NCBI GenBank assembly: GCA_023701005.1
Contig: JAMPXW010000002.1
Coordinates: forward strand, 177,167 to 241,166
Direction of reading: 5' to 3'
DNA from: Burkholderiales bacterium
GTDB lineage: Bacteria; Patescibacteriota; Minisyncoccia; Phycocordibacterales; UBA9973
DNA length: 64,000 nt
Below are positions 34,583 through 61,506 of this stretch, in pieces. The translations under genes and the position numbers were made by a program. Position 1 is the stretch's first letter. Each line of letters begins with the position of its first letter. Below the pieces are notes generated by a model. That model was not told where the DNA came from. It searched no databases and saw only the letters and a program-made list of their open reading frames with translations.

Positions 34583-34612
34583 TTTTCAGTTACCCACATA
34601 TTAAATATCAAA

Positions 34613-35575: not shown

Positions 35576-35578
35576 AAA

Positions 35579-36355: not shown

Positions 36356-36356
36356 A

Positions 36357-37976: not shown

Positions 37977-38336
37977 ATGGGAAATCTTAAAAAAGCACTA
38001 TCTTTAAATCAAGCTTCAAAAATTTCTGGCTATCATCCAGATTATTTGAGTGCTTTAATACGTAAAGGAGAGATAAAAGGAGAGAAAATCAGTGGAAGTT
38101 GGTTTACGACAGAAGAAGAAATAAAAGACTACATTTTCAAACAAAAAATTAGACACAAAAGATTAGATATCGGAGGCTTCCTATCCCCTAAAAGAACGGG
38201 TAAGGTTTTTGTCCTTACTAGTGTTTTATTCTTAGCTACCATTTTAGCAGTAATTTATATTTACGGAAAAACAGCGCAAGTGCATTTAGAAGAAGGAAGG
38301 AAAACTCTTTCCACTGATGTTGAAGTAGTTGAGTAG
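37977..38336 (+). CDS. Small membrane-anchored helix-turn-helix protein (excisionase/MerR-like HTH + single TM), candidate regulator immediately upstream of giant gene
   Basis: LSLNQASKISGYHPDYLSALIRKGEIKGEKISGSWFTTEEEI resembles HTH_17/excisionase-type DNA-binding domain; followed by TM helix VFVLTSVLFLATILAVIYIY. Confidence 0.55.
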   Translation: MGNLKKALSLNQASKISGYHPDYLSALIRKGEIKGEKISGSWFTTEEEIKDYIFKQKIRHKRLDIGGFLSPKRTGKVFVLTSVLFLATILAVIYIYGKTAQVHLEEGRKTLSTDVEVVE

Positions 38337-38374: not shown

Positions 38375-41300
38375 ATGTTAAAAACAAAATTACAAATAAA
38401 TAAAATAAATACAACAAAGATTATCTTTGCAATATTTATTTTAATTTTTGTATTCTCCCCTTTTGCAAAAGGAGAAGCTGCAATAAATAAACAAATCAAT
38501 TATCAAGGTAAACTCACTGGAAGTAGTGGAGTCGCTGTATCAAACGGAACATATAACATGGAATTCAAACTGTACACTGTAAGTTCTGGTGGCACAGCTA
38601 TCTGGACAGAGACAAGAACAGATGCAAACAAAGTCCAAGTGACGAGCGGACTCTTTAGTGTGCTATTAGGAGAGGTTTCTACTTTGGACAATGTTGATTT
38701 CAATCAGACACTTTATTTAGGAGTAAACATCGGAGGTACAGCTGTCTCTCCTGCTTGGGATGGTGAAATGACCCCACGTAAAAAACTCGGAACAGTGCCT
38801 AGTGCTGTTGTCGCAGAGAAAGCTATAAACATACTTGGTGGTTCTGCAGGATATGTTCCCTTCCAAACAGCTGCAAACACAACTTCATTTTCATCCAATT
38901 TCTTTTGGGATAATTCTACAGCAAAATTAGGTATCGGGACAACGGCACCAGTACAAAAATTAACTATATCGGGTGGCAATATAAAACTTGATGATAGCTA
39001 TTATCTTGATTGGTCAAATGGAAGTGAAAGAATTACAGGTACAGGTTTAAGTGGAAACTATTCATTAAAATTTGAAACCTACAATGGCAGTGCATTGACA
39101 GAAAAAATGAGAATCCTAGGAAACGGTAATATAGGTATCGGGACGACAGCGCCTAATGCACTTTTGCATCTTTCTGGATCTGCAGGATCAAATGGACCAA
39201 ATTCAGGTTTAATATTAAATGCATCTTATGGTTTGGGTACTTCAGTAAACAACATTGATTTTAGAATTAATGGAAATGCAATCAGAGCTGCATCTCTTGG
39301 TGCTGCAGCTAATGTTGGAGGAGCTGATTTAACATTTTACACTTCATCAAACTTTGCGACAACAGATGCCACAGAAAAAATGAGAATCGACAAAAACGGC
39401 AACGTAGGTATCGGGACAACGGCACCAGGATTTAAATTAGATGTTAACGGAATATCTGCGGCAAATCAGTTTTATTCAGGAGGAGTTAATATAACTAGTA
39501 GCGGTATCTGGGGTGTAGGTAGTAGTGCTGAAGCTTTAATTGGTTTTGGAAGTGCTCAAGCAGGAGGAGCAAGACCCTGGAATTTTTCTTCTGGCGGAAC
39601 TGGTAAAACAGGTGGTTATTTTACCTGGAATATAGATACAGTAGAAAAAATGCGTCTTGATAATTCCGGCAACGTCGGCATCGGGACGACAGCGCCGGGG
39701 GCAAAGCTGCATGTTGAAGGAACTAATGAAATTTTATCTTTAACAGGAACAACTCCTTATCTTCGTTTCTTTGCAAATCCATCACAAAGTTATATTGGTT
39801 CTGGTTCTGGCTTGGTTTCTGGTATGGCAGTTACAGATTTAGCAATACGCTCTGCATCAAATATTGGTTTTTCAATTGGGACAAGTGAAAAGGTTAGGAT
39901 AGATAGTAGCGGTAACGTCGGCATCGGGACGACGGCACCAGTAGAAAAATTAAATGTAAATGGAAACATCAATATTACTGGCGGAGAATTAAGAATGTTT
40001 AACAATTCTACAGTTTTAGCTGCAACTTCATCTAACTTATTATCAATCAACAACGGTGGATTTAGTAATGTAGCTATAACAAACGGTAATATCGGCATAG
40101 GAACAACGACACCAGCTTACAAATTACACGTAAATGGCGTCGCTTATTCTTCTTCTTATTTCTATGCTCCTGAAGGTATATTTACATCAGTACAAGCAAA
40201 TAAAGTATTTCCAACTTCTTCTGTAGATTTACGATTACAAACTAGAGATAACACAGATAATATTTTATTTGAAATAGATACAAATGCTCCTTCAGAAAAA
40301 ATGAGAATCACCTCAGCAGGCAACGTCGGTATCGGGACGACGGCACCAACATACAAATTACAAGTTGCGACAGCAGTAAATTCTGCTGGAATTGTACATT
40401 CAAATTCATCCAATGGAACTAGAGTCTATACATTTATTGATTCTTCTGATAACGGATTATTACTTCTAAAAAATAGTAGCAATATCGATAATATAAATTT
40501 GAATACTGGTGGTAATAGTTATTTAAACGGTGGCAACGTCGGTATTGGGACAACAGCTCCAGGACAAAAGCTTGATGTAGTAGGAGGAAGTATAAGAACA
40601 GATAATCAATTAATTTCTACAATAGCAACAGGTACTTCCCCATTATCCATCTTATCTACAACAAAAGTCACAAACTTAAATGCCGACATATTAGATGGAT
40701 ATCATTATAATTCATTTATTCCAGTAAGTGGTTATCACTTTACAAACGGATATTTGATAGCGACAGACATCTCTGCAGCAAGCAACACAATGTTTAGTGT
40801 AGAAATAACCGGAAATAGCTATGGGGATGGAAAACCGATTCATATAACACTTCAAGGATACAACTATACTGCAGGAGACGCTATCATAAATTATTCTGGA
40901 GTCGCAGAAGATTGGACCAGAACCGTAAAAGCATTCAACTATAATGGATACTTATATTTCTGGCTCGATCAAAGTTCTTCATTCCAATCCATCACTGCTT
41001 ATGTAAAAAATACAATGGAAACAAATAATGTAAATCATGTCACAGCTATCACCAACGAAGTAGAGCCAACAACAGGCACAACCAGAAAAGTTTCTATAGT
41101 TCCAAAACAAATTTGGAATTCTGGAAATGATGGAGTTGCTTCTACATTGGATGCTGATTTGTTAGATGGACAACATGGTTCATATTATCAAACTGCTTTG
41201 ACTAATCCTGTCACTGGCACAGGTACAACAAATTATCTTTCTAAATTTACTGGTACTTCTACTTTAGGAAATTCTTTAATTTTTGATAATGGAACTAATG

Positions 41301-44300
41301 TGGGTATTGGGACGACGGCACCAACTCAAAAACTTTCTATAAATGGTTCAGTAAACATGATTTCTAACGGTGCAATAACTTTTGAAAATACTAATAATAA
41401 TGGAAATTGGTATATAAGAAATTCTGGTACAAATTTAGCATCATTAGATTTTGGAATTGGAGCTGTTGGTGCGAGTGACAAAATAAGATTTGATAGTAAC
41501 GGCAACGTCGGTATCGGGACGACAGCGCCAGGAGCAACCTTGGATGTTGCTGGAACAATTAGAACAACTTCAACAATCACAACTGGTTCATATTTTTATA
41601 ATAATTCAGCTTCTGATGCTAATAAATATCTTACAAACACGCCAGGGCCAAGCTATATGGGTTTTAGAGGACATGGAATAAACAATAATACAAATTCAGT
41701 ATTATCAATTGGTTATACAACTTTACCATCTACTCTAATTTCTCCTGTCTTGTCGGTAGTTGATAATGGTAACGTCGGTATCGGGACGACGGCACCAACT
41801 CAAATGTTACAAATTGGAGGAAACACTACATCTTCCATAGGAATGAGGATAGCTCCTGCTGGCGCAAATTGGGACATAGTCACTGATGGCAGTCAGGGCT
41901 TAAACATTAAAAATGGAAATGGGAATTATTTAACTTTCATTAATTCATCACAAATATCTTCTTTTACAGGAAACGTCGGTATCGGGACAACAGCGCCAAC
42001 CGCAAAATTAGATATAAATAATGGGGTAAATCGTACAAACAATCCAACTAGTTTAATAGTTGCTGGCACTGGAGTACTTGGAACAACAGCTGGTAGTTAC
42101 CTATATCCGTCAGAAACAATATCAAATGCCGGAAATACTTTAAGGCTACAAACAACAGCGTACCGTAGAGATGCTGGAAGTACATGGTTCGGGGCTGGTT
42201 TCAGAATACAATATGCTGTAGACAATAGTTTTACAGATGGAACTGGTTCTTTCTTAGAAATGGGTGGACGAACTGACACAACTCCTTATATATCATTAGG
42301 TACTTCTGGAGCTGATAGAATTTATATTAATTCTTCTGGCAACGTCGGTATTGGGACAACAAGTCCAAGTGGAAAATTGGAAATAAATGGTGGAGCTTAT
42401 GATTCTTCACTTGTTATTACAACAAATGTTTCTAGTGGTGCTGATATTAAATTAAATCAAACAGGAACAAATGGAAGGGAGTGGCATATAACTTCAACTG
42501 GAAGCTCAAATGCAATGAGTGCTGGAGGTTTACAATTTTATGATGACACTGCTGGTGCTTTTAGAATGGGTATTCAAGGATCTACTGGTAATGTCGGGAT
42601 AAATACGGGGAATCCACAAGCAAAATTACATATTTATAATGCTACAGCTGGTGGATTAAATGAAACCATCCGTTCTCAGGGATATTGGTCTGCTCCAGGT
42701 TCTGGTTCTTTAATCAGATTCACTAATTATCATGCTTCCGGAACCACCCCAAACACAGGCGAATACAACTTAGCTGGAATAGGAGGGTTAGATGATAATG
42801 GAGGTTGGGGTGGTTCTTTATACTTCCAAACAGCACCGACAGGTACAGCAGGTGGAGCAGCGTTACAAACCAGAATGACAATCAACCCTGCCGGTAACGT
42901 CGGTATCGGGACGACGAGTCCAGGAACTAAATTAAACGTAATTGGTAATATAGCATCTGAAAAATCAGCAGGTGGATATGTATCCTCTTTATTTTGGCAG
43001 GGCAATGATCCAGCAATCGGTTATTATTCGGAAAATGGTTTGCTTTTTGGTACTGAAACTACAATGGTAGGTGGGGCTTTTAGTGAAAAGATGAGGATAA
43101 CAAACGCAGGCAACGTCGGCATCGGGACGACGGCACCTGCTCAAGCATTAGATGTGGCTGGTGTCATCAATGCTTCAACAGGATTTAGAATAGGAAATGC
43201 TGCTACTTCTGGTAATTATCTCCGAGGAAATGGAACAAATTTTGTTTCAAGTGCCATTCAAGCTGGAGACGTCCCTACCCTAAACCAAAATACCGCTGGT
43301 TATGCTGCACTCTTGGTGAGTGAAGACAATAGAACAATTTCTCCAAGCGAGCTAGCTATCAACCGATTAAAATTTGGTTTTACTAGTTGGGCAAACAACG
43401 ACAGCTCTCCTTATGCAGATTTCTTGCATTTGAGAAGTTACGCTGATTCCTCAGGAGGAGCTGACAACTTAATAATGTTCAACAAGAGTGTAATAGCAAT
43501 GAGAATCTATCAGCAAACATTCGGTTCTGCTACTGCATATTCTTCTTATAGAGATGTCATAACAACAAACACAAGCGCAAGTGGTACTGCAAATTATTTA
43601 CCTAAATTTTCTAGCGGAACAACAATTGCAAATTCATTAATTTTTGATAACGGAACTAACGTGGGTATCGGACTCACTAATCCTGAAGGTAAAATGCATA
43701 TTATTGGCATGAATAGTGCCTTCCCTGCTACTACGGGAACCGTTCAAACTGGATTAGAGGCTCGATTTCAACCTTATGACTCTAACGGAGTATTAGACAT
43801 AGGTGTTAACTCTGGAAGTGGAGCTTGGTTGCAATCAACTAATCGAACTAGTTTAAGTAGCAATTACCCATTGTTATTAAATCCAAATGGAGGCAACGTC
43901 GGTATCGGGACGACAGCGCCAGCCACAAATCTTGATGTAGTCGGAGATATAAGAGCAAGTGATACTTCAGGAAATTATATTTATCTTGACACGACAGGTG
44001 CAAATCCAGGCATCGTTTCAAATTCTAGCAGGTCAATCAATATACAACCTGGGTCAGGCCTAACCACTTTTTATACCTCAGGTACTGCCGGTACTCTTCA
44101 AATATATGATGGTAGTTCTTCATATCCGATTATATTGAGAGCAGGCGGTAATAGTATATTCAATGGTGGTAGCGTCGGTATCGGAACTGCAAGCCCTGCT
44201 TCAAAATTACATGTCTACGACAACAACGCAACCACAGATCACACTATCGGACTTACGATAGAACAAGCAGGTACAGGTGATGCAAAATTACAATGGCTCA

Positions 44301-53300: not shown

Positions 53301-56300
53301 TCTCTCAAAGCACTACCGGGGTAGGAACTGTCGCAACGAATGGAACGACGACATTAACGGGGACAGGAACACAATTTACAAATACTTTTAAAGTTGGAGA
53401 CACTATCACAGTATCTGGAGAAACAGTCAGAACTATCGCTACTATCGTAAGTGATACAAGTTTGGCTACGACTGTTGCCTTCACTACTACTGCTTCCTCT
53501 CTTTCATACACTCTTACTGGTGGAGATAGATTTGTTGTTAAGGGTAATGGAAATGTGGGCATAGGGACGACAGCGCCAAATAAAACATTACACGTAATAG
53601 GTGATGTTCGTGGTGGAGCTTATTATAATAATAATTCTGGGGATGGTTGGTTAATTAATCAAGATTCAGGAACAAATAGAGGATTATATTATTACAATAC
53701 AGCAGGTACGTGGGACTTATTTGACGGAGGAACTTCAAAAATTAGTATGGGTATTAATGGAAATATTCAAATGGACGGAATACTCACAGTAAGCGGTACA
53801 GGAAATACCACAATCGCCGGCAACGTCGGTATCGGGACGACGGCACCAGGAGCAAAACTTCAAGTTCAGGGTGCAATAAAAATACAAAATATAGTACCTT
53901 CATCTCCAGATCAAAACTTTAGAAGAATGATAAATGTCGCTTCATATCAAGGCGGAGGAACAATACGAACTGGAATCCTTACTGTAAAATTACCTACTCC
54001 CCTTGTTCATTCAATGGGAAAAATAAAAATAAGTGGTTGGAGTTATGGGCAATCTTGGGAAATTGATGTATCGGGATATATGCACCCTGGCACTGGTAGC
54101 GGATGGACACAAGTCGGTGGAACCGTTGTTTCAGGAAATCCACCATTCTCCCCGCATCAAGTAAAACTCGTCGCAGAAACGACAACTACAGATACTTTCT
54201 ATGTTTTGCTTGGTAATGCATCAACAAATTGGGGATATTATGCTAGCGTCGGTGTCGATGTTGATAGCTATTATTCAGACGGTCTTGGGTCAACTGGATG
54301 GGATATTAGTATCGCTGCCGCAGAACCAGCTTATGACACCTCGATCGTTCCAACAGTTTCTTCATATGGAAGTAGCAATGCTTTAATTTCTGGCAACGTG
54401 GGTATCGGGACGACAGCACCAATAAGAACTTTAGAAGTAAATGGCGGGATACAAGCATCCTCTGCTGGTTTTTATTTAGGTACTAATAGTGCTTTAGCTC
54501 AAAGTTCTTCAACTATAAAATTAGGTTGGGTTGATAGAGGAGAATTAGCAAATACTTTTATAACTCAAATCTTTTCAGGAGGAACAGGAACGACAACAAC
54601 TCCAACGATGACATTAAACGGAAATGTCGGTGTTGGTATAACAAATCCTATATACAAACTTGATGTATCACAAACAACTGTAAACAATGGTTCAGGGGTA
54701 AATGTCGTAGTTGGTAATTTTAATTCTACTGTCACAGCAGGCTCAGGAGCAGCAAATGCTGGAAGTGCAATATTAAGAGTTTCCGTAGCAGGAGGCCCTC
54801 ATGCTACGGACATAGAACAAAATGATGGAGGTTCTGCTCCATTCAGATACGGAACATACATGGATACAAACATCGTAAATAAAGATGTAAGTTCTGGTGC
54901 TTATGGAAATATAAATTTCGTAACTGGAAGTAGTACCAGTACTTCTAGTGTGGTGATGACGATAGGTGGAGGAACACAAAAAGGATTTGTAGGAATAGGT
55001 GCCACACCTACTTCTAAATTAAGTATCCAAAATAATGGTGCTTCCGACAACATTCTAAGCAATTATGCTATTACAAACGGAAATAATGCCGCAACTTTCA
55101 GAACGAGTGACACTGGTCCAATATTCGGAATTCATGCACAAAACAATGGTGCTATCTATATAAAAGATACAAGCGATAACGTACTATTCTATGGTAGTAA
55201 CGGTGGCAACGTCGGTATAGGGACAACGGCACCAGGAGTGACTCTAGATGCCTATGGAAGAATTCGAGCAGGGACAAGCTATAGAACAACAATATTTGGA
55301 GACGGAACAGGCTCAAAAATAATGCTCGGCTCAGAGTCCGACGAGGATTCCTTGGCGGTAATTGGATCATTTGGTACATCTTTACAATTAGATAGTTACA
55401 ACGGTCCAATCGTATTTAAATATTCAAGTGCTGAAAAAATGCGAATAGGAACCGATGGCAACGTCGGTATTGGGACAACAGCACCTGCTTCTCGTTTGCA
55501 TGTATCTACGTTGAGTTCTAATGATGGAGCTTTAGGACAACGTTGGTCTTATAATGGAGGAGATAGTTCCTATTATTTAGATCTAAAACAGACGGTCACC
55601 GCTGGCATAGTACGATGGAATTTCTCACAACTTAATAATGGGACAGCATACAATAATGTATTGGTTCTAGATAGAGGCAACGTCGGCATCGGGACGACGG
55701 CGCCAGGAACAAAAGTAGACGTAATCGGTGGCGACTTGCAAGCAAGCGGATTCGGACATTTTAAAGGTTGGAATACTGCAGGAGCTACTGGCTTAGGATT
55801 AGATGTTGGTATAAGTTCAAATCAAGGTTATATTATGGCATATGATAGGACTGCCTCAACTTATTATCCACTTAGAATCGTAGCTTCTAACAACACAGGA
55901 TCTGATGGATTAACATTAGCAACAAATGGCAACGTCGGTATCGGGACAACGGCACCAAGTAGAAAATTAGATGTCGCTGGATCAATAGTTGTCTCTGCTA
56001 ATGAAGTATGGTTTGCAGATAATACCGTAGCTCGTTTTGGCAAACAGGCTGACCATGGAACAATAATAAAAGCAGCAACAGGTACAACAAACGATTTTGC
56101 ATTGGCCGCACCTACAGGTTCTATATTAATGCAAAACCCAACAGCAACAGCAAACCTAGCATTTATGGCTGGTAATCTTGGTATCAATACAACAAATCCA
56201 AAAAATAAGTTAGATATTTATTTCAGTTCAGGAAATTATAGTGCTACAGCTTACAACGCTTCCCCTCTTGTATTGAGCACTCCTGATTATGCAACAGATT

Positions 56301-59300
56301 CAAAATTCTCAGGAATAAGATTTACAAATGTTAGTGGCAATAGAGAATCAATGTTTGGCACAGTGCAAACATCCCAAAACCAAGCTGATTTTGTTTTCCA
56401 AGGTTACAATGCAACAGCAGTTGCCTATCAAGAATATTTGAGAATAAAAAATGACGGAAAAGTCGGTATCGGGACGACGGCACCATCAAGCAATCTAACG
56501 ATGGTTGGTGCTAATGGAGGAATGACTGAATTCAGTATTTTTGATTACGCAGGAACAGTCGCAGGTTTCCAAATCAGATATGATGACAGCACTGGTGCAA
56601 CTTATTTAGATAATAGATACGATAATGCAAGTGGAGATATATTTATAAGGACAAAAACTTATGGGACAGCCGTAAATGCACTTACAATAGAAAGTGCTGG
56701 AAACATCGGTATCGGGACGACAGCACCTGGAAGTATCTTGCATTTGAATGTAGCTTCAGGAGTCCCTTATCAAACATTTTCTGTCGCCAATACACCGTTT
56801 GGATATGTTGGGGCAGCGGGTGCATTTTTCTCTGGACAAGGAACTAATTTCGGATTATATGGTGGTGGTAGTAGTAATATTATGATTGGAGCTCGCAATA
56901 GTGCTGATCTTACAATAGCAACTTCTGGTAACGTCGGTATCGGGACGACGAGCCCAGGACAAAAATTAAGTGTTGTTGGAAATATTGACCTCAGCGGTTC
57001 TATCGGCGGAACTGGTATGTTGTATATAGGAAAATCTGGAACAAAAACTGGCTTAGCTTATGATTCTTCAAATCAAAATTACGGTATCTTTTATACAGAA
57101 GGAGCTACCGATGCTGTTTCTATAGCTCCTAACGGTGGAGGAGACACGACTCCTGTCGCATACTTTAGTGGTAATGGCAACGTCGGCATCGGGACGACAG
57201 CACCAGCATCAGCTCTGTCTCTCGTTGGAGATATCGCCCTAACCTCTGGCGGTTATATATATGGAGACAACACAGATCCACATATTAAATTACATGCTGC
57301 ATTTGGTGCTATTATTGGATATTCAACAAATGAACTTTATATAGGTAGCGATTACAGCTTTTTGACTAATGGAACAACAAAAATGAAATTAAAAAATAAT
57401 GGCAATCTTGGTATTGGAACTGCTTCTCCTACTGCGAACTTGCAAGTCGCACAGATTTCTTCTGGGGTTGGAACTGTTTCAAACACCGCAGGTGGAACAA
57501 CAGTCACTGGAGTCGGCACACAATTCTTAAATACTTTCAAGGTTGGAGACACTGTGACGATCGGAGGGCAAACAGTCGCTATTTCTGCGATAGCGAGTGA
57601 CACTAGTATGACAACTGCAGCCATAACAAATGCAAACACAAATGTTGCATACACATTGACAGGAGCTGTAAGATTTTCAGTTTTAGGAAATGGCAATGTG
57701 GGAATAAGTACTACAGCACCTGGAGAATTATTATCTCTCGGTACAGCAGGCACCACAAAAGGTGTGCTTTCATTAGCAGGAAATACTTCTGGAAAAATAA
57801 TTATCCAACCAGCAGCCGCTGCAGGAACATACACACTCACCCTCCCTACTACCGATGGAGATGCCAGCCAAGTGTTGACGACTGATGGATCTGGAGTTTT
57901 GTCTTGGGCTTCAGCAGGAGGATCTTCTCAATGGACGACGACTGGTTCAAATATTTATTACAATACTGGTAATGTCGGCATCGGGACGACAGCACCAACT
58001 GCCAGACTTCATATAAAAGAAGCAATTTCTACCACAGTTGAAGGCTTAAGAATAGAAGATTCAACTGCGACGGGTGGATATTTAAAACTTTCAGATGCCT
58101 CTAGTGTAAGTGGACATTTCATTCCTTCTTTCTGGTCAAAAGGAATAGGTACAGGAGCAGCAGACAGAAATGGTTTTATGATAGTGGCTGAACCAGGGGA
58201 AGATGGAGCAGATGATGCAGGCATAGTATTGAATGCTCGTCTGAATGGTGCTGCTTTAACAAATGCTTCGGTATTAAAAATACAAAATTATGCTACTGAA
58301 CTAATGAGAATTGGTGCTAGTGGAAATGTCGGAATTGGAAACACAAATCCAGGATACAAATTAGATATTGCCGGAAATATAAATCTCCAAGCATCAGGGT
58401 ATCTAAGAACAGGTTCAGGTGACACAGAAATAGGTGCCTCAAGTACAGATTGGTATGTAAAAACATATGGTGGAGGAGCATTAACAGAAAGAATAAGAGT
58501 AACGAGTACAGGAAATGTAGGAATAGGAACCAACAGTCCACTAGAAAAATTAACTGTCCAAAACGGTAGCATCCTTGCTTCTAATGGAACAATATATGCA
58601 CAACCACAATCATTAACAATTTTTTCCAACTCAGCATCTACTTCAAACTCTCCAACTGGATATGTTTACCAATCATTCACGCCAACAACTGATATGCTAG
58701 CCACCGCATTAAGTGTAAATTTGTATAAACCTGGAGGTATTAGTACAATTTATTATATCTATACAGCAAACGGTGATGCTCCAGACCAATCATTGGGATT
58801 TGCTATGTCAGGGACAACAGAAGTTATGGGGTGGACTAGATTAAATCTTGATACCCCAATAGCTCTTAAAGGTGGAACAAAATACGTTTTATATGTAATG
58901 CAATCTTCAGGATATATAAAATACTCAAATACAGATGTATATTCTGGTGGTGTTTCAAGCGTGGGAGCAAGTAATGATATGCTATTTCGAATAGAGGGTT
59001 CTGTATCTAATGTAATCTCTGCTTTTTCAACGTCTACAACAAATGGATCAGCTAACTCTTACCAATCATTCACAACAACAACCGATATGCTCGTTACTGC
59101 AATCAGTGCAAATATTTACAAACCTGGTGGAAATTATGCATATTATTACATCTATACAGCAAACGGTGATACCCAAGACCAAGCATTGGGCTATGCGATA
59201 TCAGGGACAGCAGAGGCTGGAGGGTGGACTAGACTAGAATTGCCTAGCCCCATAGCCTTAAAAGCAAATACAAAATATGTCTTATATTTCACTATTACTG

Positions 59301-60736
59301 GGGGGTATACTAAATATTCAAATACTGATGTATATTCTGGTGGTGTTTCAAGCGTGGGAGCAAGTAATGATATATTATTTATGATAGAAGATTCAAGTGT
59401 CACGGCTAATCAACATTTTCCAAGCGTGGCATCATCTAGTGGTACAAATTTAGTCGTAGGTCCTAATGGTAAAGTTTATAAATACTCTTCTTCTGCTAAA
59501 TACAAAGAGAATATAACACCCTTAAAACAAGATTTTTCTAAAATCTTAGAAATACAACCAGTATCATATGACTATATCGCAACAAAGACTCATGATATTG
59601 GATATACGGCTGAAAGTTTAGACTTATTAGGTCTAAAAGATTTGGTAATATATGATTCTGAAGGGACACCAGATGCTATAAAATATGACAGAATATCTCT
59701 ATATAACTTAGAAGTAACGAAACAACAACAAAATATATTAAACATATTAAATCCTTCTATATCTAAAGAAATAAAACAAGATATCCTAGAATATACAGAT
59801 TACAGTAATGCACTTTCTATGATAACAAAAACCCCACTTTACTCTTTCAAATACAAAGATGAAGTAAAGGAAAATGAAGAAGATCCTTCTTTAGTAAAAA
59901 CTCGTATTGGATATATGTCTGAAGAAGTAGATCCGACTTTCCTTCTGGGAGACAAAATAGATCAAGTATCTGTAAATGGATTATTGATAGCTTCCATAAA
60001 AGAATTAAATCTAAAAATAGAAGAATTGGGTGGAGGACAAATAAATACAGAAGGTGCTACTGTCACCTTCGGGGAATACGCAAGTATGTTCTTTAATGAC
60101 GTGTTAACAAAAGTAGAAAACGGAGTAGCTTATATGAAAAATCTAGCTGTAGAAACTCTCAAGATAGGTAGCCCTGAAAAGCCAAGTGGTATCACAATGT
60201 ATGACGAAGTGACTGGTGACCCATATTGTTTCTCAATATCAAATGGCTCAACAAAAACATTGCTCGGAGAATGTCCTTCTATTACTCTTCCTTCAAAAGT
60301 AGCGACAAACATAGAAGGCACATTAGAAGGTGGAACAGTGTCTTCTGGAGATGTAGACAAACCAACGATCACTCTAGAAGGACAACAAATAGTGATGCTA
60401 GATGTCGGAGCTTCATATAGTGAGGCTGGTGCTCTAGCTAAAGACAATGTAGATGGAGATGTGGCTGTCGTCATTAGTGGATCTGTAGATACTTCAACTG
60501 CTGGAATATATACCATCACATACACAGCGACAGACTCAAATGGCAACACAACAACAATGACAAGAACAATACAAGTCGGAGAAGTTTCTATGATAACTCC
60601 TTCAGACATTCCAGTAACGACAGAAACGCCGACAGAAGAAACTACACAGACAGAAACTCCAACAGAAAACACAAATACCGAGCCTGCTCCATCATCAACC
60701 GAATCCACAACAGCACCAACAGAACCTACTGCCTAA
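38375..60736 (+). CDS. Giant secreted repeat protein (7453 aa) with about 70 GNVGIGTTAP-type repeats, internal segmental duplications, and a C-terminal intramolecular-chaperone autoproteolysis (Peptidase S74-like) domain followed by coiled coil, DUF5011-like Ig domain and TPE-rich tail; probable trimeric surface fibre/adhesin
   Basis: Single uninterrupted ORF (22,362 nt). N-terminal signal/TM (IIFAIFILIFVFSPFAKGEA). Conserved N-terminal module INYQGKLTGSSG...IWTE...LGVNIGG...TPRKKLGTVPSA. Recurring ...EKMRI(T/D)xxGNVGIGTT(A/S)PxxKLxV... units. C-terminal SSSAKYKENITPLKQDFSKILEIQPVSYDY...IGYTAESLD...KYDRISLYNLEVTKQQQ (S74 chaperone domain, Ser/Lys dyad conserved), then ...PTITLEGQQIVMLDVGASYSEAGALAKDNVDGDVAVVISGSVDTSTAGIYTITYTATDSNGNTTTMTRTIQVG (DUF5011-like). 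Confidence 0.85.
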   Translation: MLKTKLQINKINTTKIIFAIFILIFVFSPFAKGEAAINKQINYQGKLTGSSGVAVSNGTYNMEFKLYTVSSGGTAIWTETRTDANKVQVTSGLFSVLLGEVSTLDNVDFNQTLYLGVNIGGTAVSPAWDGEMTPRKKLGTVPSAVVAEKAINILGGSAGYVPFQTAANTTSFSSNFFWDNSTAKLGIGTTAPVQKLTISGGNIKLDDSYYLDWSNGSERITGTGLSGNYSLKFETYNGSALTEKMRILGNGNIGIGTTAPNALLHLSGSAGSNGPNSGLILNASYGLGTSVNNIDFRINGNAIRAASLGAAANVGGADLTFYTSSNFATTDATEKMRIDKNGNVGIGTTAPGFKLDVNGISAANQFYSGGVNITSSGIWGVGSSAEALIGFGSAQAGGARPWNFSSGGTGKTGGYFTWNIDTVEKMRLDNSGNVGIGTTAPGAKLHVEGTNEILSLTGTTPYLRFFANPSQSYIGSGSGLVSGMAVTDLAIRSASNIGFSIGTSEKVRIDSSGNVGIGTTAPVEKLNVNGNINITGGELRMFNNSTVLAATSSNLLSINNGGFSNVAITNGNIGIGTTTPAYKLHVNGVAYSSSYFYAPEGIFTSVQANKVFPTSSVDLRLQTRDNTDNILFEIDTNAPSEKMRITSAGNVGIGTTAPTYKLQVATAVNSAGIVHSNSSNGTRVYTFIDSSDNGLLLLKNSSNIDNINLNTGGNSYLNGGNVGIGTTAPGQKLDVVGGSIRTDNQLISTIATGTSPLSILSTTKVTNLNADILDGYHYNSFIPVSGYHFTNGYLIATDISAASNTMFSVEITGNSYGDGKPIHITLQGYNYTAGDAIINYSGVAEDWTRTVKAFNYNGYLYFWLDQSSSFQSITAYVKNTMETNNVNHVTAITNEVEPTTGTTRKVSIVPKQIWNSGNDGVASTLDADLLDGQHGSYYQTALTNPVTGTGTTNYLSKFTGTSTLGNSLIFDNGTNVGIGTTAPTQKLSINGSVNMISNGAITFENTNNNGNWYIRNSGTNLASLDFGIGAVGASDKIRFDSNGNVGIGTTAPGATLDVAGTIRTTSTITTGSYFYNNSASDANKYLTNTPGPSYMGFRGHGINNNTNSVLSIGYTTLPSTLISPVLSVVDNGNVGIGTTAPTQMLQIGGNTTSSIGMRIAPAGANWDIVTDGSQGLNIKNGNGNYLTFINSSQISSFTGNVGIGTTAPTAKLDINNGVNRTNNPTSLIVAGTGVLGTTAGSYLYPSETISNAGNTLRLQTTAYRRDAGSTWFGAGFRIQYAVDNSFTDGTGSFLEMGGRTDTTPYISLGTSGADRIYINSSGNVGIGTTSPSGKLEINGGAYDSSLVITTNVSSGADIKLNQTGTNGREWHITSTGSSNAMSAGGLQFYDDTAGAFRMGIQGSTGNVGINTGNPQAKLHIYNATAGGLNETIRSQGYWSAPGSGSLIRFTNYHASGTTPNTGEYNLAGIGGLDDNGGWGGSLYFQTAPTGTAGGAALQTRMTINPAGNVGIGTTSPGTKLNVIGNIASEKSAGGYVSSLFWQGNDPAIGYYSENGLLFGTETTMVGGAFSEKMRITNAGNVGIGTTAPAQALDVAGVINASTGFRIGNAATSGNYLRGNGTNFVSSAIQAGDVPTLNQNTAGYAALLVSEDNRTISPSELAINRLKFGFTSWANNDSSPYADFLHLRSYADSSGGADNLIMFNKSVIAMRIYQQTFGSATAYSSYRDVITTNTSASGTANYLPKFSSGTTIANSLIFDNGTNVGIGLTNPEGKMHIIGMNSAFPATTGTVQTGLEARFQPYDSNGVLDIGVNSGSGAWLQSTNRTSLSSNYPLLLNPNGGNVGIGTTAPATNLDVVGDIRASDTSGNYIYLDTTGANPGIVSNSSRSINIQPGSGLTTFYTSGTAGTLQIYDGSSSYPIILRAGGNSIFNGGSVGIGTASPASKLHVYDNNATTDHTIGLTIEQAGTGDAKLQWLTTGVTRFGMGIDNSDGDKLKISAATDLSTNNVLTIDSSSNVGIGTASPGVLLHLSKNGTASTQTVMAVLESVTSQRPVLQFSEGGYGLTSGMSIEYDGRSGGRANLLNINDINGVAIGTFMSGGNFGIQTTSPTANLTVAQSTAGVGTVSNTAGGTTVTGNGTEFTNTFKVGDTITVGGQTVAISAIASDTSMTTAAITNANTNAAYTLVGGTRMVVKGNGNVGIGLTNPSARLHISEAGPAYDWDSLRVDFQANGNLNSLNSSAGRFINTLAPSSQSYAIGSLGEAIKTGHYGYTATGAEGRGIYRSNSLGTSLASLDLYGVSGKVSVEGTGANTINSGKSLYAYANVDAGNILSTYWGVYVKSPSGTGTITNKYALVTEAGAGNVGIGLTNPGFPLAVQGTIQGRGIAYFTQASPTNSLAIDATSTTLHKIYTNNAGIDLSLGTNSSTSQLYLQSAGNVGIGTTSPGAKLDILGSNSAMALNLRSSSGQIQFFPYSDNKNYIESVDGTGTASQLLYFTGYSGTAGTFSFNGNVGIGMTSPTYKLDLQGSAWNNIARIYSTGSSSGLDFYDSGVRRGVVYSDSSGFGLLNSATSWAIKIPYGTGNVVVENGNMGVGTSSPSAKLDVVGNIELGAAVGTTRYILTDETNTGTGKVAIQAGAGSAAFGGAINLYAQAHATNPGWVQIGIGSGAGSGGTEGRFTVNNQGLGGGTDVFTVLRTGNVGIGTTGPSQKLEVNGNALVTKLGIGQLDAANYVLDVGGAARISSSGNVNFNQASGAATFHGQVNFPGSGVWQTSGNVGIGTTSPNQRLEIGSSGNYQMRIGNGSTAAYSYDFGRNTTDGLFYLYGNQTGANGYVFSGINGERMRINESGNVGIGTTAPGTKLDIAGTMHTTGLYTASAGIQLEGQNLGWDQSGVRSWTMGTAASSGNMTLKSGDEAGIFRVLTTTTSLSGNLIVSGTTNSSIAGNLGIGTINPGADLVIENSGTNNTQLWLQNTGTGITEIGFDSANGDFAGSDYMSLGQNDSLDGYIKMFANAGRFHIDTGGVERFTILQNGNLGIGTTAPGSRLVVSSAGIVAGTPEFVVGDYGTIKLKTYQTGSTYAAMYTGNNEDLRITAGTDNSQLVLKANNGNIGIGTASPTAFKLQVAGSVGPNVDNSYDLGSSGARWRNLYISGTIAQGGYLDNSLDNLVYNGDFETNSTNGWTGGGTAIVTGGHSGNYAMQVTGNQQIESVDYIPVNPVRDILQLEIYAKKSVAGTTPGILYLGYIAYDANKAAIYTAPCGSYCYFAASAYTLPADGNWHKFNATTNGEGTVYPNFPVGTKFVRVLGLINYSGSADAVTLIDHITLKRLNYGPTYIGNNFGTTNQADQTQLSKLYTTSVNNLIIDTPASNGNIGFGITNPNPFAWSSKAFTLQSTGTNTYSSLEAFGTGTGSGALLLGNSTIHRATISTADGSHLTFSTNNNNAASYMTEKMRITATGNVGIGTTSPDQLLQVNGASGTAISIKTPWAASAYGQLRFDTGTGSSSIRSSVPGDSTNGLQFFTYSGGETVKMSITGAGNVGIGLTNPAYKLDVVGGIHWNPGVTGSPEGFMSGSSAEQSIQLGSLTNSPLSLTTNALTRLFIDGNGNVGIGTTVPTYKVDIASTGNALKIGQSGTATNTIYQTFTNGGGSVYLGIDNSGGNGLFTGGAGYAAAFGHGGNYPIEFATNSTVRMLIDGSGNVGVGTATPQYGKLEIATTASNVGGLTLYRGTGTTARHWINSSDVYLIQRAITDTYGIAIDNVGNVGIGTTSPVSILNINATSPVLTLTGSTSGQETIASQIHFAVGNYSGARIKAIQTGASYGYQVGLGFFTQDAPYDANSFERMRISSTGNVGIGTTAPGKTLDIAVSPNASNGILVRDNNDATKSILITSSQGSTAFPYIGTNGNRRLDFGTNTARQMTIDTTGNVGIGTTAPNAPLSFGTVTGDKIYLYDGSGNYGFGVDSGGASQLNIFTGNSADMWFRSGGGDGTVRMAIVGTTGNVGIGTTAPGNLLNIYRNSSSTLPITRIEDAGTGDASMAFALTGVAGFSIGIDNSDDNKFKISGSGTDVGSNPYLTILGTGPTVGNVGIGTTSPGTKLQIVDSDGSNGTIGVGINSRGTFGWNNAGQGTLEIKNNLTSGSPNAITFWAAPTSGTVAEMMRIQGNGNVGIGTTAPGAKLEVVGNTYISGISSGTGNRLSFDTTGGAASNWIGTTNDYWTSIVNGRGSGSRIDLATNDIRFTFGSDVGNMLLKANGNLGIQTVSPVANFQVSQSSTGVGTVTTNGTTTLTGSGTQFTNTFKVGDTITVSGETVRTIATIVSDTSLTTTVAFSTTASSLSYTLTGGDRFVVKGNGNVGIGTTAPNKTLHVIGDVRGGAYYNNNSGDGWLINQDSGTNRGLYYYNTTGTWDLFDGGTSKISMGINGNIQMDGILTVSGTGNTTIAGNVGIGTTAPVTRLDVRALNALDGITLSANSGGSSVFRMVNPTVSNNLQIGTLSSNDVDIIANGSSKITILNANGNVGIGTTSPAQKLTISGGNIGILGQQDLMLYDSDSSHYSGFQAHATTTSNSIYTMPAAFPGSTSFMKTDSAGNLSWDTSTYITGNQSISLSGDASGSGTTAITVTNNLLTKEDNRTISPSELTTGKMRFGFTSWANNDSSPYADFLHLRSYTDASGGTDNLVMFNKSVIAMRIYQQTYGSATAYSSYRDVLTTDTGTGGTANYIPKFTGGTTLANSLMFDNGTNVGVGTTAPSYKLDVSGQIRANAGAGVAGIFTSTADYQLALSSSDSWTGIGFDDSGAINDSIWYQGTTGTFAIGGGGSSGVTSKKLHIDGATTIGANYDATAIPTNGLRVEGQTWLDSNVGIGTTNPFQKFEIDLDPTNTTQPTGINGTGTDPHTGMFILGTGNANNEKLGLQIGLWSNGTNKYSIGGLFGVMTSASGNTIGDLTFDLRSNVNDSYLTERMRITNAGNLGIQTASPVANFQVSQSTTGVGTVATNGTTTLTGTGTQFTNTFKVGDTITVSGETVRTIATIVSDTSLATTVAFTTTASSLSYTLTGGDRFVVKGNGNVGIGTTAPNKTLHVIGDVRGGAYYNNNSGDGWLINQDSGTNRGLYYYNTAGTWDLFDGGTSKISMGINGNIQMDGILTVSGTGNTTIAGNVGIGTTAPGAKLQVQGAIKIQNIVPSSPDQNFRRMINVASYQGGGTIRTGILTVKLPTPLVHSMGKIKISGWSYGQSWEIDVSGYMHPGTGSGWTQVGGTVVSGNPPFSPHQVKLVAETTTTDTFYVLLGNASTNWGYYASVGVDVDSYYSDGLGSTGWDISIAAAEPAYDTSIVPTVSSYGSSNALISGNVGIGTTAPIRTLEVNGGIQASSAGFYLGTNSALAQSSSTIKLGWVDRGELANTFITQIFSGGTGTTTTPTMTLNGNVGVGITNPIYKLDVSQTTVNNGSGVNVVVGNFNSTVTAGSGAANAGSAILRVSVAGGPHATDIEQNDGGSAPFRYGTYMDTNIVNKDVSSGAYGNINFVTGSSTSTSSVVMTIGGGTQKGFVGIGATPTSKLSIQNNGASDNILSNYAITNGNNAATFRTSDTGPIFGIHAQNNGAIYIKDTSDNVLFYGSNGGNVGIGTTAPGVTLDAYGRIRAGTSYRTTIFGDGTGSKIMLGSESDEDSLAVIGSFGTSLQLDSYNGPIVFKYSSAEKMRIGTDGNVGIGTTAPASRLHVSTLSSNDGALGQRWSYNGGDSSYYLDLKQTVTAGIVRWNFSQLNNGTAYNNVLVLDRGNVGIGTTAPGTKVDVIGGDLQASGFGHFKGWNTAGATGLGLDVGISSNQGYIMAYDRTASTYYPLRIVASNNTGSDGLTLATNGNVGIGTTAPSRKLDVAGSIVVSANEVWFADNTVARFGKQADHGTIIKAATGTTNDFALAAPTGSILMQNPTATANLAFMAGNLGINTTNPKNKLDIYFSSGNYSATAYNASPLVLSTPDYATDSKFSGIRFTNVSGNRESMFGTVQTSQNQADFVFQGYNATAVAYQEYLRIKNDGKVGIGTTAPSSNLTMVGANGGMTEFSIFDYAGTVAGFQIRYDDSTGATYLDNRYDNASGDIFIRTKTYGTAVNALTIESAGNIGIGTTAPGSILHLNVASGVPYQTFSVANTPFGYVGAAGAFFSGQGTNFGLYGGGSSNIMIGARNSADLTIATSGNVGIGTTSPGQKLSVVGNIDLSGSIGGTGMLYIGKSGTKTGLAYDSSNQNYGIFYTEGATDAVSIAPNGGGDTTPVAYFSGNGNVGIGTTAPASALSLVGDIALTSGGYIYGDNTDPHIKLHAAFGAIIGYSTNELYIGSDYSFLTNGTTKMKLKNNGNLGIGTASPTANLQVAQISSGVGTVSNTAGGTTVTGVGTQFLNTFKVGDTVTIGGQTVAISAIASDTSMTTAAITNANTNVAYTLTGAVRFSVLGNGNVGISTTAPGELLSLGTAGTTKGVLSLAGNTSGKIIIQPAAAAGTYTLTLPTTDGDASQVLTTDGSGVLSWASAGGSSQWTTTGSNIYYNTGNVGIGTTAPTARLHIKEAISTTVEGLRIEDSTATGGYLKLSDASSVSGHFIPSFWSKGIGTGAADRNGFMIVAEPGEDGADDAGIVLNARLNGAALTNASVLKIQNYATELMRIGASGNVGIGNTNPGYKLDIAGNINLQASGYLRTGSGDTEIGASSTDWYVKTYGGGALTERIRVTSTGNVGIGTNSPLEKLTVQNGSILASNGTIYAQPQSLTIFSNSASTSNSPTGYVYQSFTPTTDMLATALSVNLYKPGGISTIYYIYTANGDAPDQSLGFAMSGTTEVMGWTRLNLDTPIALKGGTKYVLYVMQSSGYIKYSNTDVYSGGVSSVGASNDMLFRIEGSVSNVISAFSTSTTNGSANSYQSFTTTTDMLVTAISANIYKPGGNYAYYYIYTANGDTQDQALGYAISGTAEAGGWTRLELPSPIALKANTKYVLYFTITGGYTKYSNTDVYSGGVSSVGASNDILFMIEDSSVTANQHFPSVASSSGTNLVVGPNGKVYKYSSSAKYKENITPLKQDFSKILEIQPVSYDYIATKTHDIGYTAESLDLLGLKDLVIYDSEGTPDAIKYDRISLYNLEVTKQQQNILNILNPSISKEIKQDILEYTDYSNALSMITKTPLYSFKYKDEVKENEEDPSLVKTRIGYMSEEVDPTFLLGDKIDQVSVNGLLIASIKELNLKIEELGGGQINTEGATVTFGEYASMFFNDVLTKVENGVAYMKNLAVETLKIGSPEKPSGITMYDEVTGDPYCFSISNGSTKTLLGECPSITLPSKVATNIEGTLEGGTVSSGDVDKPTITLEGQQIVMLDVGASYSEAGALAKDNVDGDVAVVISGSVDTSTAGIYTITYTATDSNGNTTTMTRTIQVGEVSMITPSDIPVTTETPTEETTQTETPTENTNTEPAPSSTESTTAPTEPTA

Positions 60737-60777: not shown

Positions 60778-61506
60778 TTATAATATTATTTCTAAATCCA
60801 ACCAAGAAAAAATATCTTTCTTAAAATCACCAATATTCAAAAAATATTCAGGAAAACTTTTTAAATCTAAAATTTTATTTTCAGATCTTCTGTTGCCAGA
60901 ATTATCATAATAACTACTCCATCTGTAATGATCTAAATATTCCAAATTATTTTCACTATTGATACCCTCATTCTCTCTCCAACTTGAATCAATAAGCTTG
61001 AGAGGATTAAGATGAATATAAGAAAAAACATACTTAGCCTGAACGTCATTCTCAACATGAACTGCTTTAAATGGACCCTCATACAAACTTCCAGTCCTTT
61101 TATGCCTAATATTAAAATATTTAGAATAACTCATACAAAGTTTGTGCATAAATAAAGTAATATTCTTATTAAAATCCTCTATTTCTTCCCGGACACCAGG
61201 TGTCCGGGAATTTTTAGAATCAGAAAAATCCTCACGTGGAGTTAAATAAATATGAAAATGATTTGGCATTAAAACCCAGGCACCGATAGATACGAGTGTT
61301 TCTCCCCTATCAAAATCTAAAGCATTAATTTTTTTATCAACAATGTCATCACGAAAACAAATATTCTTTTTTGAATTAGAAAGATATAATAATTTTACAA
61401 AACGTTCTCTATCTCTATCATCAATAAAGATATTTTGCTTACTGTTACCTCTATTATAAACATGAAAATATTCTCCAAAAACAAGAGCCTCTTTTCTATG
61501 TGTCAT
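60778..61506 (-). CDS. REP-associated tyrosine transposase (RAYT; IS200-like Y1 HuH transposase)
   Basis: EYFHVYNRGNSKQNIF; HuH motif in WVLMPNHFHIYL; catalytic-Tyr region KYVFSYIHLNPLK; C-terminal YRWSSY. Matches the RAYT family signature order (Y-x-Y-NRG...MPNHxHLL...YIxxNP...WSS). Confidence 0.8.
   Translation of the reverse strand: MTHRKEALVFGEYFHVYNRGNSKQNIFIDDRDRERFVKLLYLSNSKKNICFRDDIVDKKINALDFDRGETLVSIGAWVLMPNHFHIYLTPREDFSDSKNSRTPGVREEIEDFNKNITLFMHKLCMSYSKYFNIRHKRTGSLYEGPFKAVHVENDVQAKYVFSYIHLNPLKLIDSSWRENEGINSENNLEYLDHYRWSSYYDNSGNRRSENKILDLKSFPEYFLNIGDFKKDIFSWLDLEIIL
61186..61210. repeat. REP-like palindrome copy 2, located in-frame inside the RAYT coding sequence (encodes ..SRTPGVRE..)
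   Basis: ttcccggacaccaggtgtccgggaa read directly within 60778..61506. Confidence 0.8.

Follow-up and report, generated by a model that had tools for sequence, protein, structure and literature searches.

A single open reading frame (ORF) in the window, by which we mean the whole 64,000-nucleotide stretch of DNA that was analyzed, encodes a protein of 7,453 amino acids (aa) which, judged from its sequence, is a giant member of the mosaic adhesive trimer (MAT) kind of fibers known from Bdellovibrio bacteriovorus. The gene (38375..60736, plus strand) begins with an ATG, the first possible start after a stop, and comprises 7,453 codons without an internal stop; the identical protein is in GenBank as MCM2339341.1, on a contig of 267,744 bp, part of which also occurs in SRR23907158. 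We put at roughly 65% the probability that the product is a giant cell-surface fiber of the MAT/phage-tail-fiber kind, made by a Paceibacteria (Nomurabacteria-like) bacterium from the CPR (candidate phyla radiation) and matured by the steps proposed below. An original prediction, made from the DNA letters, had described one uninterrupted 22.4-kb frame with an N-terminal signal peptide and about 70 irregularly spaced copies of a beta-helix- or fiber-like periodic motif, and had suggested a role as cell-surface fiber or adhesin. The frame, the signal, and the repeats were borne out, and the suggested role is now backed by homology to the MAT surface fibers of Bdellovibrio. The prediction had missed the closest known relatives, the MAT fibers, by which repeat, N-domain, and S74 domain are explained together.

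The shaft (aa 163 to 6745; 38861..58609, plus strand) is built from a unit that reads ...ERMRI...GNVGIGTTxPxxKLxV... and corresponds to the beta-helix/capping-loop repeat of the MAT fibers. A loose regular expression for the G-N-V-G-I-G-T core found 60 copies, versus 0.2 expected in shuffled sequences. A hidden Markov model (HMM) built from the repeats themselves counted 69 units, spaced 58 to 450 aa apart with a median of 85 aa, and left five inserts between them. No Pfam model exists for the repeat. When a profile made from 51 of the fiber's own repeats was searched against 177,635 PDB sequences, it matched crystal structures of Bdellovibrio bacteriovorus MAT fibers and nothing else, with five distinct sequences in eight entries. 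The best match was 8OND (Bd2133; E = 1.6e-31, in three stretches), and the others were 8OML (1.4e-16), 8OJN/8ONB/8ONC (3.8e-12 for 8OJN), 8OL4/8ONF (2.6e-9 for 8OL4), and 8ON4 (1.2e-8). The element ERMRI..GNVGIGT.AP..KL.V was aligned between the window repeats and the MAT structures, e.g., SERMRIDTSGNLGLGTAAPTSALHV and SDKVVISQAGNVGIGATAPTAKLEV. In MAT fibers, a capping loop with the consensus V-G-G/N-pi-x-x-P-x-x-x-L bounds intertwined trimeric beta-helix modules, and in Bd3182, 96 residues separate the two capping loops of a 60-A module (PMC10769870). The 85-aa median period of the window fiber is close to that distance.

The repeat is widespread. A 536-aa repeat block matched at least 4,663 proteins, many of which also carry an S74 domain, and the named relatives came from Patescibacteria, Elusimicrobia, Margulisiibacteriota, and Omnitrophica. 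The repeats also matched the PHROG tail-fiber families 9942 (E = 2e-42) and 18345 (E = 8e-36), and in a tblastn search the annotated tail fibers of 52 phage records, including Pelagibacter, Synechococcus, Roseobacter, and Thermus phages. One repeat homolog (P0218) is named trimeric autotransporter adhesin in its source; no Pfam match to a YadA-type anchor was found in any part of the window fiber.

The N-terminus begins with a signal peptide (aa 1 to 35; 38375..38479, plus strand) consisting of a Lys-rich n-region (MLKTKLQINKINTTK), a hydrophobic core, and a predicted cut at G-E-A|A. The only transmembrane-like hydrophobic window of the whole protein lies at aa ~8 to 37. The junction, x-x-A|A-I-N-K-Q in the window fiber, is conserved as x-x-A|A-(I/L/F)-N-(K/Q)-Q in seven relatives, and by the -3/-1 rule it is compatible with cleavage by signal peptidase I behind Ala35. 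The n-region (aa 1 to 15; 38375-38420) is unusually long and conserved among giants (P0109, P0155, P0103); the sequences there are MLKTKLQINKINTTK, MSKPKLQINIKK, ...LQNKINIKK, and MSTPKGQINKK. Such length and conservation suggest a specialized export or targeting signal.

The signal peptide is followed by a beta-rich domain resembling the MAT N-domain (aa 36 to 162; 38480..38860, plus strand), presumably the cell-proximal anchor. Its pattern, AINKQINYQGKLT...GTYNMEFKLY...WTE...V.V..GLFSV.LG...VDF...LYLGV...EMTPRK.LG.VP, is common to other large relatives, always directly after the x-x-A|A junction. The NCBIfam model NF053851 (Bdello_MAT_N) matched it with 30.7 bits (E = 2.3e-7; profile positions 9 to 78 of 162), where the curated cutoff is 60. 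Five relatives matched the same model at the same place, and together with the window fiber they span 25 to 31 bits and E values of 2e-7 to 1e-5, below the cutoff. We take this to be reproducible remote homology rather than formal membership. In contrast to the shaft and the inserts, the N-domain had no PHROG match, which fits the proposal of the MAT authors that this part is a cell-proximal attachment piece.

MAT fibers are surface-located trimers with a signal peptide, an N-domain of ~130 aa, and beta-helix modules with capping loops, and 13 of 21 members carry a self-cleaving S74 domain (PMC10769870). The window fiber shows the same order of signal peptide, beta-rich N-domain, and repeats as Bd3182 and Bd2133. 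Both also contain the capping-loop/beta-helix unit itself, interspersed adhesive domains (lectin-like or other), and an S74 chaperone/protease whose dyad is Ser-x4-Lys, and in both cases the encoding cells live on other cells. It differs from the MAT fibers in being about 7-fold longer (7,453 aa with 69 repeats and five inserts, versus ~1,000 aa for the HD100 MATs and at most 1,915 aa for listed homologues), in an N-domain that covers half of the MAT_N model below its cutoff, and in an S74 region that is nonterminal and duplicated, with its second copy inactivated. The Cys2 module, immunoglobulin (Ig)-like domain, and Pro/Thr (P/T)-rich tail behind S74 form a post-S74 module that is not described for MATs. 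The published MAT homologues range from 417 to 1,915 aa and derive from Oligoflexia, PVC, FCB, Micavibrio, Myxococcales, Bradymonadaceae, and Omnitrophica; none is from Patescibacteria, the phylum of the window host, and none has the size of the window fiber (PMC10769870). A literature search found no description of MAT-like fibers in CPR bacteria, although a text search cannot prove absence.

The C-terminal piece was matched by the Pfam Peptidase_S74 model (PF13884; gathering score, 22) with 51.6 bits in two stretches. The assignment of 59.48 to 60.0 kb to Peptidase S74 in the original prediction thus stood by profile score, except that there are two tandem domains and not one. The first (S74-1; aa 7039 to 7126; 59489..59752, plus strand; 33.1 bits, from profile position 1) has Ser7039 and Lys7044 intact. 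In the second (S74-2; aa 7127 to 7217; 59753..60025, plus strand; 25.9 bits, from profile position 4), Ile7129 occupies the nucleophile position and Lys7134 is kept. The predicted catalytic Ser with a Lys five residues on, which careful alignment confirmed in S74-1, therefore does not extend to S74-2. Among relatives of S74-1, the dyad columns hold Ser in 77 of 79 and Lys in 78 of 79 proteins, and they line up with S-D-R-R-I-K in the long-tail-fiber chaperone of phage S16 (6f45). The nucleophile column of S74-2 holds Ser in 43 of 45 relatives (consensus, Q-T-S-T-R-x-T-K-Q-D-I), where the window protein has P-S-I-S-K-E-I-K-Q-D-I. Since the ATA codon of Ile7129 is at least two nucleotide changes away from any Ser codon, it is not a base-calling slip. 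S74-2 is predicted to be a noncatalytic member of the S74 family, to which its profile match assigns it.

A recent duplication as the origin of the S74 pair was rejected: BLASTP detected no meaningful similarity between the two domains beyond overlap at their junction, and they represent two different S74 subtypes. The tandem arrangement is rare, with one other example in the mapped set (P0094), both dyads of which are intact. In searches of the PDB by sequence and profile, the S74 domains gave weak matches, to 6f45 (E = 0.005) and 8jov (E = 0.37), which fix the register of the dyad and are too weak for modeling the domain. A different multiplicity was observed in P0112, a protein of 7,103 aa that has three S74 domains at a regular spacing of ~2,355 aa (aa 2282 to 2382, 4637 to 4740, and 6996 to 7098) and lacks GNVGIGT repeats. 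Its layout resembles three fiber units joined in a single polypeptide, which could be separated by S74 self-cleavage.

The expected site of self-cleavage follows by analogy. MyRF is cut between P586 and S587, where S587/K592 are equivalent to S911/K916 of endoNF (PMC8326128), and Bd3182 is cut at S782, with the S782A exchange blocking cleavage (PMC10769870). In the window fiber, where the peptide SSSAKYKENI begins at aa 7038, the scissile bond is accordingly expected at Ser7038|Ser7039 (nt 59488|59489), two residues upstream of the position after the last Ser of SSS|AKYKENI that had been proposed originally. MyRF also shows that S74 need not be the extreme C-terminus of characterized proteins, as had been claimed: its S74/ICA domain (ICA, intramolecular chaperone auto-processing) is internal, was cleaved experimentally, and is followed by a transmembrane domain (PMC8326128, PMC3742443). 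Like MyRF, the window fiber has an internal S74/ICA domain with structured sequence behind it, and a cut before the catalytic Ser would yield two sizeable products. In MyRF, the C-terminal product is anchored in the membrane by a transmembrane helix and a transcription factor is set free, whereas the N-terminal product of the window protein would be an extracellular fiber. No MyRF-type transmembrane helix is present behind the ICA domain, the window fiber having no hydrophobic window after aa 37.

Immediately ahead of S74-1 lie two tandem DUF4082/lectin-like domains (aa ~6746 to 7010; 58610..59404, plus strand). Two Pfam models matched here, each in two stretches: DUF4082 with 42 bits, above its cutoff of 28.4, and Lectin_like with 36 bits, above its cutoff of 27. 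The two copies are 55 to 72% identical and presumably become the distal tip once the C-terminal fragment has been removed. MAT crystal structures measure 142 A for 370 aa and 60 A for 135 aa (PMC10769870). At the MAT rise of 0.38 to 0.44 A per residue, the shaft, taken as 6,876 residues, would extend over 2,640 to 3,060 A (~0.26 to 0.31 um), which is probably comparable to the size of the ultra-small cell itself, as expected for CPR bacteria.

From these findings, maturation in five steps can be proposed. The protein would be exported by the Sec pathway and lose its signal peptide after Ala35. The C-terminal S74 domains would then bring three chains into register, and the shaft, whose repeats are homologous to the solved MAT fibers, would fold as an intertwined trimeric beta-helix with 69 capping-loop repeats and five globular inserts. 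Subsequently, S74-1 would cut its own chain at Ser7038|Ser7039 by means of Ser7039/Lys7044, as the conserved residues and the precedents of MyRF, endoNF, and Bd3182 suggest. A trimeric C-terminal fragment of 415 residues, comprising S74-1, the nucleophile-less S74-2, Cys2, the Ig-like domain, and the P/T-rich tail, would leave or stay loosely bound, and its loss would uncover the lectin-like pair as the distal tip. Finally, following the MAT model, the MAT-N-like domain would hold the fiber at the cell surface. By analogy with MAT and phage fibers, the most likely role is recognition of, or adhesion to, a glycan on the surface of a host cell. C-terminal trimer nucleation followed by self-cleavage is the logic of phage fibers as well, and it is expected to apply here; the S74 dyads of endoNF (K1F, 3GW6), T5 pb1 (4UW8), and S16 long tail fiber (6F45) are in the same register as that of S74-1. 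Unlike phage fibers, the window fiber is cellular and Sec-exported, has no virion context, and continues for ~330 residues after its chaperone, which in phage fibers is C-terminal.

It should be noted that several observations weigh against this scheme. S74-1 reads S-S-x-K-x-K, with Ser in place of the usual Asp after the nucleophile (S-D-x-x-x-K); Ser is also found at this position in 75 of 79 relatives of the same subtype. The Bdello_MAT_N matches of 25 to 31 bits, versus a cutoff of 60, involve only the first half of the model (positions ~6 to 78 of 162). S74-1 has lectin-like domains ahead of it in place of a beta-helix, in contrast to the chaperones of endoNF, T5, and Bd3182, which adjoin the helix that they fold. 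An AlphaFold2 monomer model of the C-terminal 453 aa, based on a 13-sequence alignment, had a mean predicted local distance difference test (pLDDT) score of 44.7, and the Ig domain was its only confident part. Furthermore, a structured fragment of 415 residues with a conserved module is much to discard, which hints at a function outside the model. The mechanism leaves unexplained both the conserved module of 330 to 415 residues behind the cut and the presence of a second S74 that presumably cannot cut.

The arrangement behind S74 was compared across the family. An exhaustive HMMER search with aa 7031 to 7332 returned 3,707 representative proteins at E values up to 1e-3. Of the 123 S74-bearing proteins mapped in the retrieved set, 99 continue for more than 100 residues beyond S74, and 63 for more than 200, so that a nonterminal S74 is a family trait and not an anomaly of the window gene. 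This set is biased, since the query itself held the downstream module. Long extensions occur in about half of the 50 proteins that were matched via S74-1 alone. By contrast, S74 is present in 16 of the 120 best repeat-block homologs of ordinary size, and 15 of these 16 end within 13 residues of it. As far as these sequences show, terminal and nonterminal S74 domains are both common, and the extended form is typical of the Paceibacteria subfamily to which the window fiber belongs.

The extension consists of three parts. The Cys2 module (aa 7222 to 7302; 60038..60280, plus strand), identified by alignment and AlphaFold2 modeling, spans ~80 residues with the signature ...FF.DV..KVENGVAYMK.L.V.TLKIGSPEK..GIT.YDE.TG.PYC.S..NG..KT..GEC, in which Cys7285 and Cys7300 are invariant. 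It follows S74 in ~55 mapped proteins, often with a PF16403 Ig-like domain and a P/T-rich tail thereafter. An AlphaFold2 model of the Cys2 module from a 60-sequence alignment had a mean pLDDT of 75, reaching 87 to 96 in a small sheet at the end. It runs from the S74 terminal helix through a linker, a helix plus hairpin, and an extended segment to a three-stranded sheet, with Cys7285 in the sheet and Cys7300 just past the last strand. Foldseek found no structural neighbor of this model in the PDB (best E = 1.1) or in BFVD (best E = 0.034; template modeling score of at most 0.25). A separate coiled coil, which the original prediction had placed after S74, was not retained: alignment and model identify this helix as the terminal helix of S74-2, and the corresponding helix of MyRF forms a trimeric coiled coil (PMC8326128). 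The Ig-like domain and the tail were predicted correctly. The former is a bacterial surface domain of PF16403 ("DUF5011" at NCBI; aa 7332 to 7401; 60368..60577, plus strand) that scored 74.4 bits; it matched PDB entries 2kpn and 5fq3 by sequence and had a pLDDT of 70 to 88 in the model of the C-terminal 453 aa. The Thr/Pro/Glu-rich low-complexity tail (aa 7402 to 7453; 60578..60733, plus strand) is present in homologs, and inspection of its sequence and a hydrophobicity scan revealed no sorting signal and no transmembrane segment.

A more speculative extension of the proposed mechanism, which we regard as rather doubtful, would give the C-terminal fragment a function. S74 would then act in this Patescibacteria subfamily as a maturation switch instead of a folding cap to be thrown away, yielding from one chain a lectin-tipped fiber of ~0.3 um and a functional trimeric C-terminal particle made of the S74 core, Cys2, Ig domain, and P/T-rich tail. 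If this were true, the particle could be, e.g., a secreted host-binding factor, a docking piece that attaches again to the fiber or the envelope, or an assembly platform; the pairing of an active with an inactivated S74 would fix the cut site and keep S74-2 as the permanent trimer core of the particle, and Cys2 would be a new functional domain specific to episymbionts.

Alternatively, the S74 domains might serve as nuclei for trimerization and folding only, without being cleaved in vivo, so that S74-S74-Cys2-Ig-P/T stays in place as the distal tip. The lost nucleophile of S74-2 shows that a noncleaving S74 is tolerated in this protein, Cys2 and Ig are conserved and structured as expected of a functional end-piece, and PF16403 is an Ig-like domain characteristic of surface proteins. 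However, the near-invariant Ser and Lys of S74-1 are hard to explain without catalysis, nearly all S74-2-type relatives keep their Ser, and every S74 domain with an intact dyad that has been tested experimentally (Bd3182, MyRF) does cleave. We therefore consider an uncleaved fiber unlikely.

A second alternative reverses the polarity after the manner of MyRF: the Ig domain and P/T-rich tail would be associated with the envelope or wall, and the S74 cut would shed the fiber or leave it noncovalently attached. MyRF shows that an N-terminal trimer can be set free at an internal S74 while the C-terminal portion stays tethered. In the family of the window fiber, the post-S74 module is conserved. 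P/T-rich stretches serve as wall-spanning spacers in Gram-positive surface proteins, which also speaks for this arrangement. Yet neither a transmembrane segment nor an LPXTG-type signal nor any other anchor is present at the C-terminus, the domain that resembles a cell-proximal MAT piece is at the opposite end, and lectin-like and carbohydrate-binding-module domains are situated along the shaft and at its C-terminal end. Reversed polarity thus appears distinctly improbable, and we retain the orientation with the N-domain at the cell and the lectin-like pair outermost.

The host was identified from its housekeeping genes. For the CTP synthase gene of the window (28273-29967, minus strand), the 80 best relatives among GTDB species genomes, with identities up to 82%, are almost all labeled as Patescibacteria groups (Candidatus Paceibacterota, Nomurabacteria, Paceibacteria, Saccharibacteria, and others) or as plain "bacterium"; a few are labeled "Bdellovibrionales" and none Burkholderiales. 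The nearest homologs of the fiber's C-terminal module likewise belong to Candidatus Nomurabacteria, and the whole window has a GC content of 30%. By these sequence relationships, the host is an uncultured Paceibacteria/Nomurabacteria-like CPR bacterium, in agreement with the small, AT-rich, episymbiont-type genome that had been predicted. The GenBank label of the metagenome-assembled genome, "Burkholderiales bacterium," was rejected on the evidence of the CTP synthase relatives, and the record is misbinned or mislabeled. The fiber gene takes up 22 kb, or 8.4%, of the 268-kb contig.

This setting also bears on whether a prophage or phage tail-fiber gene might have been binned with a bacterial contig. 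Repeats and inserts do match phage tail-fiber families and annotated tail fibers, and S74 is classically a phage domain. Against this, the protein starts with a Sec-type signal peptide and an N-domain without phage match, it is surrounded by cellular genes (for CTP synthase, release factor, FtsEX, tRNAs, and PMT-type glycosyltransferases), none of the neighbors scanned was recognized as a phage structural gene, and the contig carries Patescibacteria housekeeping genes. The S74-2-Cys2 part was not found in IMG/VR, either with a single sequence or with a 10-sequence alignment, by a method that reaches fairly close relatives only. A phage origin is accordingly very improbable.

That the ORF is an assembly artifact or decaying pseudogene, with shorter repeat genes joined or collapsed by the assembler, is scarcely credible despite a metagenome-assembled source under a wrong taxon label, a gene highly repetitive at the protein level, and the interruption of some homologs, given 22.4 kb at 36 to 41% GC without a stop codon, a longest exact direct DNA repeat of 65 nt, internal DNA duplicates of at most 92% identity, low ratios of nonsynonymous to synonymous substitution rates (dN/dS) between paralogous segments, and one N-terminal signal with one C-terminal module. 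The same plan of ends recurs in P0109, a second giant that was found independently. It has 5,744 aa and 59 repeats, is 25 to 39% identical to the window fiber, with which it aligns over the N-terminus, shaft repeats, and C-terminal module, and carries a single S74 with a textbook S-D-A-R-L-K ahead of Cys2-Ig-P/T. Within the window fiber, aa 4276 to 4425 and aa 4988 to 5137 are 97% identical as protein and 92% as DNA, with 32 synonymous and 4 nonsynonymous differences (dN/dS, 0.03); two further internal paralog pairs gave 0.02 and 0.12. Values of 0.02 to 0.12 indicate that the frame has been under purifying selection since the duplications. As exact repeats do not exceed 65 nt and the DNA-level repeat families are 71 to 86% identical, there was little for a short-read assembler to collapse, and misassembly is unlikely. 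GC content is ~30% in the flanks of the gene, versus the higher values within it, and by codon position it is 0.44/0.51/0.24. Gly, Thr, Ser, and Asn are abundant in the protein, which has only four Cys residues.

The nearest homologs of the C-terminal region are found in two loci, L082 (1-6428; ENA ERZ27254852 k141_386766) and L083 (1-10966), where the fiber gene is interrupted by an intein; none is present in the window gene. The intein sits directly behind a repeat motif (...GNVGIGTTEPLQKLHVEGQ|CVTSDTLL...). The ORF with the N-terminal intein part extends through unrelated sequence to its stop; next come a gene for a PemK toxin and one more ORF, and a new ORF starts inside the intein (...VWDIEVEDTHNFVGNNIFAHN|TYMSGNVGIGT) and carries S74-Cys2-Ig. 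Either the intein is naturally split, in which case it could trans-splice the shaft to the C-terminal module, or it has decayed.

The five inserts of the window shaft were delimited as gaps between repeat matches. Insert 1 (aa 753 to 951; 40631..41227, plus strand) is a nonrepeat segment bounded by two L-D-G-x-H motifs, with a weak tail-fiber match (phrog_5342; E = 5.8e-6). Insert 2 (aa 1612 to 1746; 43208..43612, plus strand), which matched the tail protein family phrog_10588 (E = 1e-5), is a paralog of insert 4 (aa 4533 to 4719; 51971..52531, plus strand), as internal alignment indicated. Insert 2 is 76 to 84% identical to aa 4619 to 4752. Behind each of the two regions comes a "restart" motif, NY(L/I)PKF..NS(L)(I/M)FDNGTNVG(I/V)G, which after insert 2 reads NYLPKF..NSLIFDNGTNVGIG. 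Insert 3 (aa 3128 to 3345; 47756..48409, plus strand) resembles a carbohydrate-binding module (Pfam CBM_4_9, 28.8 bits with a cutoff of 25.9; phrog_25032, E = 4e-11) and also weakly matches NCBIfam NTTRR-F1. Insert 5 (aa 5175 to 5316; 53897..54322, plus strand) is nonrepeat and had no Pfam or PHROG match. In addition, four repeats hold the same small beta-domain, at ~44790, ~51240, ~53375, and ~57525 (aa ~2140, 4289, 5001, and 6384). Its pattern is ..GVGTV...GTT.TG.GT.F.NTFKVGDT.T..G.TV..I..I.SDTS..T.., the copies are 56 to 97% identical, and Pfam gave a weak match to the beta-domain of mechanosensitive channels (27 bits).

Several neighboring genes are described for completeness. Directly upstream of the fiber gene, an ORF of 119 aa (37977-38336, plus strand) has a helix-turn-helix (HTH) at its N-terminus, which Pfam HTH_17 matched with 22.7 bits (below the cutoff, 27), and a transmembrane helix at its C-terminus. 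It may be a regulator tethered to the membrane. In L082, too, a MerR/HTH_17 gene is situated near the homologous fiber gene, ~350 nt downstream of it. Farther upstream, four codirectional genes for secreted or membrane proteins (33932-37796, plus strand) may form a surface-protein cluster. Two of them are paralogous (216 and 258 aa; 33% identity; E = 6.5e-25), a third encodes a protein of 320 aa with a signal peptide and a C-terminal transmembrane helix, and the product of the fourth (479 aa) shows similarity to fn3 and to purple-acid-phosphatase-N domains and has a transmembrane helix at its C-terminus. A WxL-type surface complex is not claimed for these genes, since its sole support was a nonsignificant WxLIP_PGBD match (E = 0.11) of the 320-aa protein. 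Converging on the 3' end of the fiber gene, a gene at 60778-61506 (minus strand) has a faint match to an IS200-like Y1 transposase (E = 0.02, below the cutoff) and may be a REP-associated or domesticated transposase.

Giant proteins of the cell surface or linked to predation have been described before in Omnitrophota and other host-associated bacteria (bioRxiv 10.1101/2023.11.21.568195; PMC11573180). They are likewise very long, secreted, encoded by ultra-small or host-dependent bacteria, and supposed to act between cells, with a different domain content and lengths up to tens of thousands of residues. The terms "S74" and "tail fiber" are absent from the Omnitrophota text (bioRxiv 10.1101/2023.11.21.568195), and the "neglected giants" paper does not mention S74 or a tail-fiber architecture either. 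The finding is less exceptional than originally held, because internal S74 domains are known and the arrangement is common in the family; moreover, the protein was already in GenBank, under a bland name and the wrong taxon. What is new is the MAT building block in a new phylum and size class, the family-specific post-S74 module, and the pair of active and inactive S74 domains. The MAT fiber family is thereby extended to a phylum and a size class that its discoverers did not list, with the same "mosaic" build at an ~7-fold larger scale. The S74-Cys2-Ig arrangement and the active/inactive S74 pair raise the question of what the cleaved fragment does. In the literature found, host finding and attachment by CPR/Patescibacteria are connected mainly with type IV pili and unnamed "adhesins." Here, a Paceibacteria genome spends 22 kb on a fiber composed of a module that Bdellovibrio uses for recognition of its prey and phages for recognition of their hosts. 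The window fiber is therefore a testable candidate for host recognition, with its lectin-like and carbohydrate-binding-module domains as candidate determinants of specificity.

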